From assembly GCA_934255405.1 (NCBI GenBank), contig CAKQNT010000001.1, forward strand, positions 34,043 through 98,042: 64,000 nucleotides of DNA, written 5' to 3'. Made by a program: the position numbers and the translations under genes. The notes under the pieces were generated by a model, which was not told where the DNA came from, did no database searches, and worked only from the letters and a program-made list of their open reading frames with translations. This document shows, in pieces, positions 11,537-16,577 of the stretch (position 1 is its first letter; the number at the start of each line of letters is the position of its first letter). The DNA comes from an uncultured Alphaproteobacteria bacterium (GTDB taxonomy: Bacteria; Pseudomonadota; Alphaproteobacteria; RF32; CAG-239).

Positions 11537-14500
11537 CTATCTTTCCAACTGGTCTTGTTTGGCAATCGCGGCGTTATAGTTGTTTTCTGCCTGAGCACGC
11601 TCGCGGATTTCTCCTTCCAGCCGTTTTTGCAGAGCAACCATTTCTTTTTGCATCGTTTCATATTGCTTATAAGCGGCTCTGGCGGCCAAGACATTATCCT
11701 TGCTGCCATCTGCTTTGGCGGCCTCAATCTTGTTTTGAGCATCAATATAGGCATCTTGCACCTTTCTTTGGACTTCCGCAAGCTGGGTGCGATAGTCCTT
11801 AATTTTCATCTCGGCCCCTTCCATAGACTTTTTATACTTCTCTTTGTCATATTTAGCCTCATTAAGGCTGGCCATTTTAGCCTCCTCTTTCAGCTTTTGG
11901 AGCGGAGTTTCCGCCTTTTTGACAACAGCCTGAGCAGTTTGAGCCTCAACGTTGGCCAATTGAGCCCGTTTCTGAAGTTCAGCCGCACGAGCTAAATCTG
12001 CAGAATTGTTGGTCTCTTGAGCTTTTTTCACCGCCTCTTGAGCCAGTGCTTCTGCCTTGGCAGCAATATCAACTTTAGCAGCCGCCTCAGATTTGGCCGC
12101 ATCCAGTTCCGCCTGTGCCTTAGCCAGTTTATTCTCGGCAGCGAGGGCTATTTTGCTCGGCGTATTGTCTGCCTCATATTGCTGACCAGCTACCTCAGCA
12201 GACGATTTATCCCCCTCAACCACCTGCGCAGTTTGCGGTTTTGGCTCGCCAGCAACCGGTGCTTTGACAATCGGTCGCGCCTGTGCCTTGACTGTGCCGG
12301 CAGTATAACCGGCAGCAGCGACAGCCGTATTATTGGACTGTTGAGCCTCAACATTTATGGCTTCTTCAGCAGTCTGTTGAGCCGGCACAACCTGCGCAGA
12401 AGCATTATTGGCAGATGTTGTTTGGCTGTTTGCTTTGGGCGCATTGGTTGATTGAACCTGAACGGCCTTTGTCTGATCGTTGGCGGCCGGCGGGTTGACA
12501 ACCTTAGGAGCGACAGTCTGCTGGCTAACCTTCTGCTGGTTAACCTTCTGCTGGTTAATAGTTTGTGTCTGAACAGCCTTAGTTTGTACGGAAGCAGTGT
12601 TTGCTGCAGGCGCTGGAGCCGGAGCCGCGGCATTTTTACTTTCGGCCTTGGCTGCATTATTCTGCTGTACCTTATGTTGTTTGGCTTTATACCTATCATT
12701 GCGAGCCTGATTAATACTCTTGCTGCCAAAAGCGCTAAAGTTAGCTACGACTTCCACTCCGGCACCTACGGTACCAGTAGCATCTTGAAGTGTTTGGTTG
12801 GCACTTTTAGATCTATTAGTCACCTTATCTACAGCATCAAGGAAAGCATTTTTTCCATTATTAATGCCAGATTTCTTGTTACTGGCAATATCGCCTTCAA
12901 TAGCAACATCGCGCACTCCGACAACTCGCTCACCGTTTGAGTTTATTCCCTCAAAGGTCTCTTTAGCAAAACCGCTTTTAACCAACACAACGTTACCATT
13001 GGCATCATAATCCATATCTCCGCCCCAGCGACGCTCGGCATTACCATCTGTACCAATGGTCTGCCCCATCAATGCGGCATTAAATTTGTTGGTAGCTTCG
13101 CCGCGGTCGCGTTTAGCTTTCAGCTCACGCTGCTCATCAACACTCTTGCTCATATCCTGAACATTGTTGCCGATACTTATGATATTGTCTGTAGTAGTAC
13201 CGAGTGCACCGCCGACCGAGCCAACCATGAAATCCATGTTTTTGCCGATGTTGCCAACATTGTAAAAGATACTTTCAAGGCTGCCTTTGCCCTTAACAGC
13301 ATTGCCGATGGCCTCAGCTGCAGCTCCGATATTTTTAGCCGCGCCGGTAACATTTTCTACCGTACTCTTAACCGTATCAACTGTGCTCTTAGCCTTTTTG
13401 AGAGCATCGACACCTTTCTTGCCGGCCGAAATTAAGTCACCAACACAACTTTTGAAATTGCCCCAACCACTAGCACCAGTTTTGCCACAGAATTTGCGGG
13501 TTGCAGCCTCAGCCTCTTCAGCACCTATCGGAGTAATCGTGGTGTCGGGCTTGTCTCCATCAGCCACTTGCGGAGCGTAGGGAGATATCTCCTCAACCCA
13601 TTCATATTCAGTGTCTGCAAAACCTTTGTCCAGATAATCGCCAAAAGAGGCCAACGGCTGCGGAGAACTTTGCCATCCTCCGTCTTTGCCACTATCCGGA
13701 TAAACCATAAATTCAATCAGCCGTCCCATATTGGCAACCAGAAACAGTCCGATGGCAATATTGGCAAACCACTTCCAGCTGATTTTGTTGAAAATTGCCA
13801 TATATGCAAAGGCAATCAAGCCAAAGCCGGCAAAGGTATATACCAGAGGCTTGAGCCCGACCAGAATACGGGCGGCACGACGGGTGATGGTAGAGAACAC
13901 ATCGCCGGTGTTGGAATAATCAATATTACCTGTATATGTTCCAGCCGCGATATCGCCTTGGGCGGTACTGAAAGCCTTATATTCCATACCACGCATATCA
14001 AGTCCACTTGCTCGTCCTTCTGCAATGGCTTTTTTTCTGGCCTCAGCCAACTCTTGTTCCAATGATGCAAGATCTGATTTCAGCCCTGCCAAATTTTCTT
14101 GTTCGGCAGCCAGTTGCGCTTCCAATTGTTCTTGCATTCCGCAATATTTTTGCGCATCTTTTTGACCTCGTTTGGAACGAAGTTTTTTGGAATGTTCACA
14201 AGCGGCTTTGGCTTCTTTTAACTTATTTTGATAATCAGCAATCTTATCTTCTGAAGCCTTAACACCAGCTTTAAAACTATCTACTTTTTCCTGTATGGCC
14301 TCTACAGAATCTTCTTCATAGTAAGCACCCTGTTTTTTAGATTCTCTTTCAGCCGCGGTTTTTTCTTTGTAGGCATCATCAGCCGCAGTTTTAGCATCGG
14401 CCAAAGCCTGTTTGGCATCTTCTATTTTTTTAGAACAATCCTCTGTGTTTTCTTTAATACACTGATATTGTAATTTTGCTAAATCCTCGGCGGCTTTAGA

Positions 14501-15310
14501 ATATCCATCTCTCGCAGCTTGGTATTTTTCGTCTGCGGCCTTAGCTTTTTCATAAGCCTCTTTTCGAGGATTTGACGGAGCATCAGAGTCTTCAGCCTCC
14601 GGCACAGGCTGCTGTGTAGTGAGCGGACTGTTATAGACCGCAAGCTGACCGGTAACCTTATTTAGTTTTTGTTGAGCGGTATTGAGATCAGCGGTTGCCT
14701 TCTGACATTTTTCCTGATTACCGCCTTCTTTGCAGTATTTTTCAACTTTACTTTGCGCTTTTTCAATGTCCTTTTTCGCTTTATCAGATTGTTTTGTCAG
14801 ACTCTTTTTCTCTTTATTCAGCTGTTTTTCTTCTGCCTTAGCCGCTTTTTTTTCGGCTTTTAATTCTTTGCTCTTTTCAGCTTTTTTAACTTCCTGAAGC
14901 GCATCTTTTCTTACTTGTTTAGCCTCTTTTATATCCTTGGCAGATTGATTTTTGGCGGCTTGCAGTGCTTTATACAGTTCACCACAATCATCCGTACAAT
15001 TCTCATAAGCCTTCTGAGCAACACTTACTTTTTTGTTTGCAGCATACAGAGCTTCACTATAAGCGTCCTCGGCAGCTTGTTTGGCCGCTTTGTTATCATT
15101 CTCTTGGGCTTTTATTTTTGCTTGCTGATCTTGCAAAGATGTGCGACGCGCAGATACTCCGCTGCGGGCAGAAACAACAACTCCAGACAAATTGCCACCG
15201 TCCACCTCGACATCTTCGTCCGCCGCAAAGACCGGAGAAGGATAGTATGATACCACGGACAAAGCGCAGGCAATTAACATTGCTTGACTTATTTTCTTAA
15301 GGTTTAACAT
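11537..15310 (-). CDS. Giant secreted protein (1257 aa) with a VirB2/TrbC-type pilin domain (aa ~485-545) embedded between coiled-coil/low-complexity regions (N-terminal ~480 aa and C-terminal ~700 aa).
   Basis: Signal peptide MLNLKKISQAMLIACALSVVS. Motif AGFGLIAFAYMAIFNKISWKWFANIAIGLFLVANMG aligns with the pilin motifs of the 112-aa and 211-aa proteins (AGFG...NWKW). Confidence 0.55.
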   Translation of the reverse strand: MLNLKKISQAMLIACALSVVSYYPSPVFAADEDVEVDGGNLSGVVVSARSGVSARRTSLQDQQAKIKAQENDNKAAKQAAEDAYSEALYAANKKVSVAQKAYENCTDDCGELYKALQAAKNQSAKDIKEAKQVRKDALQEVKKAEKSKELKAEKKAAKAEEKQLNKEKKSLTKQSDKAKKDIEKAQSKVEKYCKEGGNQEKCQKATADLNTAQQKLNKVTGQLAVYNSPLTTQQPVPEAEDSDAPSNPRKEAYEKAKAADEKYQAARDGYSKAAEDLAKLQYQCIKENTEDCSKKIEDAKQALADAKTAADDAYKEKTAAERESKKQGAYYEEDSVEAIQEKVDSFKAGVKASEDKIADYQNKLKEAKAACEHSKKLRSKRGQKDAQKYCGMQEQLEAQLAAEQENLAGLKSDLASLEQELAEARKKAIAEGRASGLDMRGMEYKAFSTAQGDIAAGTYTGNIDYSNTGDVFSTITRRAARILVGLKPLVYTFAGFGLIAFAYMAIFNKISWKWFANIAIGLFLVANMGRLIEFMVYPDSGKDGGWQSSPQPLASFGDYLDKGFADTEYEWVEEISPYAPQVADGDKPDTTITPIGAEEAEAATRKFCGKTGASGWGNFKSCVGDLISAGKKGVDALKKAKSTVDTVKSTVENVTGAAKNIGAAAEAIGNAVKGKGSLESIFYNVGNIGKNMDFMVGSVGGALGTTTDNIISIGNNVQDMSKSVDEQRELKAKRDRGEATNKFNAALMGQTIGTDGNAERRWGGDMDYDANGNVVLVKSGFAKETFEGINSNGERVVGVRDVAIEGDIASNKKSGINNGKNAFLDAVDKVTNRSKSANQTLQDATGTVGAGVEVVANFSAFGSKSINQARNDRYKAKQHKVQQNNAAKAESKNAAAPAPAPAANTASVQTKAVQTQTINQQKVNQQKVSQQTVAPKVVNPPAANDQTKAVQVQSTNAPKANSQTTSANNASAQVVPAQQTAEEAINVEAQQSNNTAVAAAGYTAGTVKAQARPIVKAPVAGEPKPQTAQVVEGDKSSAEVAGQQYEADNTPSKIALAAENKLAKAQAELDAAKSEAAAKVDIAAKAEALAQEAVKKAQETNNSADLARAAELQKRAQLANVEAQTAQAVVKKAETPLQKLKEEAKMASLNEAKYDKEKYKKSMEGAEMKIKDYRTQLAEVQRKVQDAYIDAQNKIEAAKADGSKDNVLAARAAYKQYETMQKEMVALQKRLEGEIRERAQAENNYNAAIAKQDQLER

Positions 15311-15366
15311 GGCACCCTCCTATTCTCTATTTATGATGCTGAAAAAGCTCAGCATCTTAGTCTTCT

Positions 15367-16002: not shown

Positions 16003-16238
16003 TGCGCCCTCCCGTTTTGTGGTTTGTTTGCCTTTGAATATCTGCCCCTAAAAGCAGATGTTGAAAGGCATTTTTATTCTTGTTTTTGCCCTGAATTAAG
16101 TTCAGGATAATTTATTTATAAAGAAAGGGGGATGGCTAAACTGTAGTTTGACAGTTTTACAAGACCCCCTTATTAACCTCTTTCTCCTTGCGGCTCGGGC
16201 TGCGTTGCGGCAGCCCGATACCATACAGAAGGAGAATA

Positions 16239-16577
16239 TTAGTTGGTAGCATTGTTGAAAGAGTCTTGGAAACCAGACATAGTTTCACCAGTAGCGTAGT
16301 TAACTACAGAACCGGCAGCTGCCAAAATAGCCAAACCAACGGCCAAGCTGGCAAACCACTTCCAGTTTACTTTACCAAAGATAGCGGCAAAAGCGATACC
16401 AACCAAACCGAAACCACCAACGACGAAAATAATCGTCTTGACGGAAGTAAATACGTTCAGAGCCTTTTGCTGAGAGGTCTGCATAACACTCTGAGCCGAA
16501 GCATCACCGGCAAAAGTCAGCAGAGTAAATACAGCTACCAGACAAAATGTCCAAATGTTGTTTTTAATAAAGTTCAT
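16239..16577 (-). CDS. virB2: VirB2/TrbC-family T4SS pilin (112 aa).
   Basis: Long signal peptide followed by two hydrophobic helices VVGGFGLVGIAFAAIFGKVNWKWFASLAVGLAILAAAG. First gene of the cluster. Confidence 0.65.
   Translation of the reverse strand: MNFIKNNIWTFCLVAVFTLLTFAGDASAQSVMQTSQQKALNVFTSVKTIIFVVGGFGLVGIAFAAIFGKVNWKWFASLAVGLAILAAAGSVVNYATGETMSGFQDSFNNATN

Follow-up and report, generated by a model that had tools for sequence, protein, structure and literature searches.

Pilins of the VirB2/TrbC superfamily, which include A. tumefaciens VirB2, RP4 TrbC and R388 TrwL, are usually seen as small, single-purpose building blocks of the type IV secretion system (T4SS) pilus, with mature forms of approximately 70–120 amino acids (aa), and the target specificity of these systems is credited to VirB5 or to outer-membrane adhesins. 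In the present study we analysed a 64-kb stretch of DNA (the window, to whose positions all coordinates refer unless otherwise stated) from an uncultured gut alphaproteobacterium of the RF32/CAG-239 lineage, in which three minus-strand open reading frames (ORFs), at 16239–16577 (112 aa), 15367–16002 (211 aa) and 11537–15310 (1257 aa), each encode a single VirB2/TrbC-type helical hairpin. The three genes, which we call paralogue A (p112), paralogue B (p211) and paralogue C (the giant), are followed directly by a VirB3-like gene and virB4, and are located exactly as given in an earlier note on this DNA, made without database searches. They resemble described VirB2/TrbC pilins in having a Sec signal peptide, two hydrophobic helices with a short basic/aromatic loop between them and a gene position just upstream of virB3–virB4. 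The closest relatives, however, are precursors of 104–117 aa, a range into which p112 fits, whereas B carries a 100-aa insert between signal peptide and hairpin and C has approximately 440 aa before and 720 aa after the hairpin, so that the head-to-tail cyclization of VirB2/TrbC pilins would be impossible for the B and C forms.

Extended VirB6 proteins and multi-copy VirB2 are described in the 2025 T4SS review, which contains no extended VirB2, and targeted literature searches (RF32/CAG-239 T4SS; fused or extended VirB2) found nothing relevant. This supports the suggestion of the earlier note that pilin domains fused to large modules are not a standard architecture, and in both size and architecture B and C are outside what is described for VirB2 pilins. 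The three pilins in series, to which that note also drew attention, are real, but a tandem arrangement is not unusual per se, as divergent VirB2 genes lie in tandem beside a T4SS in the case of TrwL of Bartonella Trw, the VirB2 paralogues of the Anaplasmataceae and the arrays of 2–11 copies in Patescibacteria, and such copies have been proposed to diversify a surface structure. Those arrays, as described, consist of small pilins throughout, whereas the present genes form ancient, stable orthologous groups with distinct architectures, two of them with large added modules. A likeness is also found with the extended VirB6 proteins (RvhB6 of Rickettsiales and others), in which a core T4SS membrane subunit is enlarged by big hydrophilic domains of unknown function; VirB6 nevertheless has five or more transmembrane helices, whereas C has two, those of the VirB2 hairpin, and gave no TrbL/VirB6 Pfam match. 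The nearest functional analogy may be with the modular (bimodular) type IV pilins PilB and PilC of Streptococcus sanguinis (PMC8179133, PMC9934059), in which a functional module is grafted on to a polymerizing pilin module to give an adhesive minor subunit. Type IV pilins belong, however, to another filament superfamily with a class III signal peptide, a single N-terminal helix, assembly by T2SSE/T2SSF and not VirB4, and no sequence relationship to VirB2, whereas the giant has a classical Sec signal peptide and a mid-protein VirB2 hairpin, and its extension is fibrous and not a recognized globular adhesin domain.

The assignment of all three proteins to VirB2/TrbC was examined by several independent comparisons. 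When the window is translated in all six frames, a relaxed signature, GFG-x14-WKW, is found three times, once per pilin gene, and not at all in 50 shuffles. The three copies of the longer motif written down in the earlier note are thus real, but its literal pattern was slightly too strict, as p112 reads GGFG, the giant AGFGLIA without the final glycine of the pattern, and p211 WKWLGA. A three-way alignment of the A, B and C hairpins contains 12 invariant positions, and the shared positions cluster around the GFG and the WKW loop. The giant has two hydrophobic segments, at residues 482–500 and 518–536, with equivalents in p211 and p112, and no further hydrophobic segment beyond these and the signal peptide. 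Against the Pfam TrbC/VirB2 profile PF04956 (length 98, gathering score 27.9 bits), p112 scored 37.8 bits and passed, but p211 (22.9 bits, E 1e-4) and the giant (21.3 bits, E 3e-4; residues 487–526, profile positions 50–89 of 98 only) fell under the gathering score. Within the wider families, 13 of 15 giant-family members matched TrbC in a Pfam scan at E <= 1 (best 2.6e-5), and several B-family and some C-family members carry a precomputed PF04956 match.

More sensitive comparisons gave far stronger support. We gathered the three paralogues from approximately 58 related loci and built a hidden Markov model (HMM) from orthologues of A only; at Z = 1e6 this matched residues 477–535 of the giant with an E value of 1.5e-12 and p211 with 1.6e-11. 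Profile–profile alignment with hhalign returned probabilities of 99.6% for A against C and 99.2% for A against B. By BLASTP, the RefSeq 'TrbC/VirB2 family protein' WP_203447090.1 (117 aa, Microvirga sp. VF16 plasmid pMVF16-3) was matched by residues 463–535 of the giant (34% identity, E 2e-9), by p112 (44%, E 2e-17) and by p211 (40%, E 9e-18). These data bear out the VirB2/TrbC identity that the earlier note had assigned to all three proteins, and by homology, predicted topology and gene position we regard their membership of this superfamily as secure. Structure prediction, which that note had also proposed as a check, was of less help. AlphaFold2 (AF2) modelled helical hairpins at a predicted local distance difference test (pLDDT) of only approximately 55–75: for residues 450–879 of the giant, from a 15-sequence alignment, it predicted a helix–loop–helix for the hairpin (pLDDT 43.5 for the whole model), and for p211, from 108 sequences, helices at 133–166 and 172–196 (pLDDT 57.2). 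Foldseek of the p211 model against the PDB gave nothing with E < 1. Because structural confirmation of the VirB2 fold was not obtained in this way, the homology rests on the sequence profiles.

The earlier note had described the giant as a coiled coil, a pilin domain and a low-complexity and coiled-coil tail, a layout that we recovered and could divide more finely; all segments are on the minus strand, like the intact 1257-aa ORF itself. A signal peptide (residues 1–29, 15224–15310), which begins MLNLKKISQ and ends in SPVFA before AD at a cleavage site predicted from an AXA-type motif, is followed by an A/K/E-rich N-terminal insert (residues 30–470, 13901–15223) that is a coiled-coil-like rod by composition and heptad scan and is variable between species. 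The hairpin (residues 471–540, 13691–13900) comprises the first transmembrane helix, the NKISWKW loop and the second helix. Behind it lies a conserved, G/A/N-rich, helical module (residues 541–880, 12671–13690) that contains a cysteine loop, FC-x13-C (608/622), long helices with many small residues and a short stretch rich in beta structure, then a linker (residues 881–1040, 12191–12670) of A/Q/V/P-rich low-complexity composition, which has almost no homologue coverage and varies in length between strains, and finally a C-terminal module (residues 1041–1257, 11540–12190), which is coiled-coil-like by heptad scan, yields BLASTP high-scoring segment pairs to the C-termini of approximately 20 homologues and is conserved in most of the long ones.

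Beyond the signal peptide, all cysteines of the giant occur in close pairs (105/109, 193/202, 284/292, 371/390 and 608/622), the four pairs of the N-terminal rod being approximately 90 aa apart. All giant homologues that we examined display this pattern on both sides of the hairpin, with 4–21 pairs at a spacing of 50–130 residues. As cysteines are found only in close pairs on either side of the hairpin, both extensions are likely to be extracytoplasmic, in an oxidizing compartment, which argues strongly for a VirB2-like topology, in which the two ends are outside the cytoplasm and the loop lies within it. We also considered a recent tandem repeat as the origin of the N-terminal rod and rejected this, as pairwise scores between units were mostly no better than those of shuffles and only the spacing of the cysteine pairs is periodic.

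The post-hairpin module appears, from its distribution, to be the family-specific core of the C extension. An exhaustive HMM search with a profile of residues 541–840 found only 99 proteins among 1.84 billion representatives; apart from gene fragments and repeat-only matches, all of these carry the hairpin upstream, and a stand-alone copy of the module was not found in this search. A profile search of the giant core against PDB sequences gave coiled-coil noise only, and a Pfam scan of the giant-family members returned only TrbC and a weak DUF948 helical match. The possibility that VirB5 or some other T4SS part has been fused on as this module was rejected: hhalign against the Microvirga proteins encoded after VirB4 gave probabilities < 1%, and the HMM search had found no stand-alone copy.

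Paralogue B (15367–16002, minus strand) consists of a signal peptide, a variable cysteine-containing N-terminal insert, the hairpin (residues 133–201, 15400–15606) and a tail. It has at least 419 homologues, in which the hairpin and the C-terminal tail are conserved and the insert varies. The similar starts of p211 and the giant (MLKFKKICQ and MLNLKKISQ), noticed earlier, are real and conserved throughout the B and C families. Two cysteines of p211, Cys125 and Cys198 (TGC...TGC; 15400–15630), flank the hairpin and are invariant in 108 sequences; judging from this placement, they might form a disulfide staple that does the job of the head-to-tail cyclization of VirB2/TrbC. Residues 68–97 (15712–15801) form a four-cysteine mini-module, modelled by AF2 (pLDDT approximately 70) as a CxxxC in a helix with two cysteines in a beta-hairpin. 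In Foldseek this overlaid a 28-aa scorpion-toxin (cysteine-stabilized alpha/beta) fold with a TM-score of 0.70 on the target, a match that is not significant (E 7.3).

We then asked how widely, and how intact, these genes are found. The giant is present as a 100%-identical protein on 10 contigs, and a word-indexed search recovered 40 homologues of 714–2155 aa, which all share the start of the signal peptide and whose hairpin, AGFGLIAFAxxAIFNKISWK(W/H), hardly varies. In a scan of one genome per species, the gene was found in 62 metagenome-assembled genomes (MAGs) of uncultured gut and rumen Alphaproteobacteria, including 'Proteobacteria bacterium CAG:495', from sources that include human, Hadza, rabbit, deer, sheep and yak; we know of no cultured representative of this gut lineage, and the only source name given for any family member is 'hypothetical protein'. 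A 4.3-kb contig with the pilin trio (L051, JAISFX010000138.1) also occurs in a MAG labelled 'Lactobacillus sp.', and this is probably a binning contaminant and not a Gram-positive occurrence.

In almost every one of approximately 60 species-level loci the order is a short, a medium and a long pilin, a 96-aa VirB3-like protein and VirB4. Across these loci A is mostly 110–130 aa (reaching 182 aa in the most distant), B 110–310 aa and C 166–2058 aa, with exactly one hairpin per protein in all three paralogues, and the long gene is split in one locus only (L047). The earlier note had asked whether the fusion is conserved; it is intact in approximately 60 species, and the giant is consequently not a pseudogene fusion. 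Compared with a 94%-identical homologue, the giant shows a ratio of non-synonymous to synonymous substitution rates (dN/dS) of approximately 0.31 and an identical hairpin, and the sole difference in length, of 37 aa, is due to an in-frame indel within the low-complexity linker, where a 15-nt tandem repeat (2.8 copies, 12517–12558) encodes QQKVN repeats.

The hairpins have a mean identity of 0.73 within A, 0.69 within B and 0.62 within C, as against 0.30–0.36 between groups, and for 174 of 174 sequences the nearest neighbour is in the same group. A, B and C thus fall into three clean orthologous groups, which indicates that the triplication is old, predating the radiation of the lineage, and that each copy is under its own constraint. 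In the deepest clade (L049–L063) the C hairpin stands directly behind the signal peptide and there is a C-terminal extension only, of 270–780 aa; as the N-terminal coiled-coil insert is missing there, it appears to be a later addition. Over all loci the extensions of C range from 0 to 860 aa on the N side and from approximately 60 to 1340 aa on the C side, a more than ten-fold variation, and conservation is far higher in the C hairpin than elsewhere in the giant. The closest cultured relatives by VirB4 are plasmids of Microvirga (38.6% identity), Sphingosinicella and Paracaedimonas, which encode one small pilin each (104–117 aa) with the same NWKW loop, suggesting that the modular pilins are a derived trait of the gut lineage. 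A MobA/MobL relaxase gene is present in the Microvirga and Sphingosinicella regions, and the Paracaedimonas plasmid is typed MOBQ in PLSDB. The link to plasmid T4SSs came via VirB4, as tblastn of p112 against plasmids gave no match at E <= 0.01.

Paralogue A (16239–16577, minus strand) is a canonical 112-aa VirB2/TrbC pilin, with a signal peptide and a hairpin at residues 33–101 (16275–16481), and is the proposed major pilin. Just 3′ of its stop codon the A–B spacer (16105–16240, minus strand) is predicted to fold into two stem-loops, the second with a U-rich tail, with a minimum free energy of −52.4 kcal/mol (z −6.8; none of 200 shuffles folds as well). The spacer is structured in 42 of the 44 loci tested, with a median z of −6.25, whereas the B–C spacer is short and unstructured (median z −0.6). 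This RNA is a candidate attenuator/terminator or mRNA-stabilizing element, which would set the ratio of major to minor pilin, and the presence of a structured RNA after A and not after B fits an expression of A exceeding that of B and C. All three pilin genes have a good Shine–Dalgarno sequence, that of A being a strong AAGGAG. A terminator-like GC-rich hairpin with a T-rich tail is also found at 11490–11509 (minus strand), just past the stop codon of the giant, in the 233-nt gap before the VirB3-like gene.

In our favoured reading, to which we give about an even chance of being right, the major pilin is A, and B and C serve as modular minor pilins, joining the T4SS pilus via their hairpin and displaying fibrous modules. 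The locus would then be a chromosomal P-type (VirB-like) T4SS in which a single ancestral VirB2 was triplicated long ago into three non-redundant subunits. B and C would retain the Sec signal peptide and the hairpin as an assembly module, to be handled by VirB3/VirB4 and packed against pilin subunits and lipid, with their extra modules grafted on the hairpin ends, which face the exterior of the filament in VirB2 pili. After Sec insertion the hairpin would lie in the inner membrane with the NKISWKW loop in the cytoplasm and both extensions in the periplasm, where the paired cysteines would become oxidized. A few B and C subunits might then enter the growing filament, most plausibly, given their bulk, in its first, tip-forming layer, from which the disulfide-stapled coiled-coil rods of C and the small cysteine-knot module of B could project as adhesive or spacing fibres. 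The near-invariance of the C hairpin favours such an assembly role, as a simple membrane anchor need only stay hydrophobic. The more than ten-fold variation in extension length and the indel-prone linkers are typical of surface fibrils, and the canonical virB2 gene position, as read from approximately 60 species, would also be in keeping with this reading, as would the paired cysteines on both sides of the hairpin and the structured A–B spacer. What we show here is the homology of the proteins, their domain layout and conservation, the pairing of the cysteines, the order of the genes and the structured spacer, and the topology, the division into major and minor pilins, incorporation into a pilus and an adhesive role are inferred.

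VirB5/TraC/TrwJ is a secreted, largely helical, separate tip subunit, proposed to act as pilus nucleator and tip adhesin (2025 T4SS review), and by analogy C could fill this role at a locus where VirB5 was undetected; neither the giant core nor the proteins downstream of VirB4 gave a VirB5 Pfam match.

Several points weigh against this reading of B and C as pilus subunits. Their Pfam scores are under the gathering threshold, no adhesin-type domain was recognized in the extensions by the Pfam and PDB-sequence searches, and the low confidence of the AF2 models (pLDDT 43.5 and 57.2), together with the lack of a significant Foldseek match, would also tell against it. The placement of B and C in the filament, and indeed the production of a pilus by this T4SS, are both predictions. 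In addition, subunits with > 1100 extra residues must pass the outer-membrane core complex, which may be impossible and which leaves room for them only at the tip or at very low density in the filament. Finally, as VirB5 and a polytopic VirB6 were not detected in the approximately 20 kb of readable sequence downstream of virB4, the machine may differ from the R388/pKM101 model that lies behind the assembly scenario.

This last point leads to the alternative that survives best, which we nevertheless consider rather unlikely, namely that B and/or C stay anchored in the inner membrane, where the hairpin docks to VirB3/VirB4/VirB8 and the periplasmic rods form an enlarged stalk or cage, possibly replacing the undetected VirB5/VirB6. 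VirB5 and a polytopic VirB6 were looked for without success in the stretch from virB4 to virB8 and in the remainder of the visible locus (although VirB6 and other components may lie outside the available sequence), and enlargement or duplication is common among the parts of this T4SS, as with a 1359-aa protein, two VirB8 proteins, a 562-aa VirB9 bearing a SPOR domain and a repeat protein of 1138 aa. Paired cysteines fit the periplasm as well as the cell exterior, and pilins are needed for channel function even in pilus-less systems (2025 T4SS review). A periplasm of fixed width is, however, at odds with C lengths of 166–2058 aa among related species; such variation is hard to fit to a periplasmic part of fixed geometry, of which neither strain-variable low-complexity linkers nor an N-terminal rod wholly missing in the deepest clade would be expected.

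Less probable still, in our view, is that the hairpin acts as an export handle, by which the VirB4 pilin-dislocation pathway extracts C as a fibrous protein that ends up on the surface or in the medium, free or loosely attached, and not as a stable pilus subunit. Strict conservation is indeed limited to the hairpin and approximately 200 aa after it, with the remainder behaving like exchangeable cargo, and the proposal that a pilus-like piston of Ptl pushes periplasmic pertussis toxin out (2025 T4SS review) is a precedent for T4SS export of periplasmic cargo. There is, however, no sign of a cleavage site between hairpin and cargo, nor an experimental precedent for the handle itself, and the whole hairpin, with both helices, is conserved, which points to lasting packing contacts and not to a transient signal. 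An assembly artefact, a pseudogene fusion or a helix pair that resembles VirB2 by chance, for which the sub-threshold Pfam scores of B and C and the partial profile coverage of the giant (positions 50–89 of 98) might be cited, is effectively refuted by the identical giant on 10 independent contigs, the long orthologues intact in approximately 60 species with one split (L047), the dN/dS of 0.31 with its sole indel in frame, and the A-only HMM (E 1.5e-12), hhalign (99.6%), BLASTP to an annotated VirB2 (E 2e-9) and motif counts (three against none in 50 shuffles).

Returning to the reading of B and C as modular minor pilins, a VirB2 family whose members carry from hundreds to two thousand additional residues would demonstrate that the scaffold of the conjugative pilus tolerates modular decoration, would provide a natural test case for models of VirB4 pilin extraction and tip nucleation, and suggests a route to engineered display on T4SS pili. 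It also suggests that widespread uncultured Alphaproteobacteria of the human and animal gut have a major surface structure that has so far gone unannotated. A bolder and more doubtful extension, which we offer as a speculation, is that in this gut lineage the VirB2 hairpin is a universal 'pilus-insertion cassette', with which the T4SS might export fibrous adhesins of kilodalton-to-megadalton size and display them at the pilus tip, these replacing VirB5 as the nucleating and tip subunit, so that T4SS pili could carry covalently grafted modules like type IV and chaperone–usher pili, and that the T4SS and the linked type IVb/secretin cluster described below might constitute one organelle for attachment to host or prey.

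Downstream of the pilin trio, the VirB3-like gene (11014–11304, minus strand) encodes a protein with two hydrophobic segments and overlaps the start of virB4. The protein has no Pfam match, matches a RefSeq 'VirB3 family' protein of Microvirga by BLASTP (E 2.8e-8) and is present as 96 aa in nearly every related locus. VirB4 (8595–11024, minus strand; 809 aa) was identified by TIGR00929 (E 1e-112) and Pfam CagE_TrbE_VirB (E 2e-13), its 38.6% identity being to the VirB4 of Microvirga pMVF16-3. Downstream of virB4 the analysis covered 1–8516 of the window (minus strand) and 11605–21605 of L066. Six genes, whose products are of 593, 192, 360, 165, 534 and 1359 aa, lie between virB4 and virB8; in these products we found a signal peptide only, with no Pfam family above threshold and no further transmembrane segments. 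Beyond them, on the same scaffold but past the end of the window, are the two VirB8 genes, a lipoprotein of 62 aa with homology to the lipoprotein at the VirB7 position in Microvirga, the 562-aa VirB9/CagX with its SPOR domain and, after VirB9, the 1138-aa protein, which has beta-flower/RHS-like repeats. Neither VirB5 nor a polytopic VirB6 was detected in the approximately 20 kb of readable sequence downstream of virB4.

Divergent from the T4SS pilin genes, a type IVb-pilus-like cluster occupies 16852–28219 of the window (16852–26785 on the plus strand, with a second pilin at 27593–28219 on the minus strand). It encodes a Pro-rich protein of 523/534 aa, TcpQ, a secretin, two unknown proteins (425 and 439 aa), a T2SSE ATPase, a T2SSF platform protein and two PilS/Bundlin-type type IVb pilins (26120–26785 and 27593–28219). 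This cluster adjoins the VirB2–VirB4 genes in most of the approximately 60 related loci, and such conserved adjacency suggests a functional link between the two filament systems. A 333-aa T2SSE-family ATPase is encoded at 33990–34991 (minus strand), approximately 17 kb from the T4SS pilin genes; its size fits either VirB11 or PilT, and it could serve either filament system. Also near the pilus clusters, adjacent genes at 29943–32205 (minus strand) encode a eukaryote-type Ser/Thr protein kinase (483 aa) and a PP2C phosphatase (269 aa).

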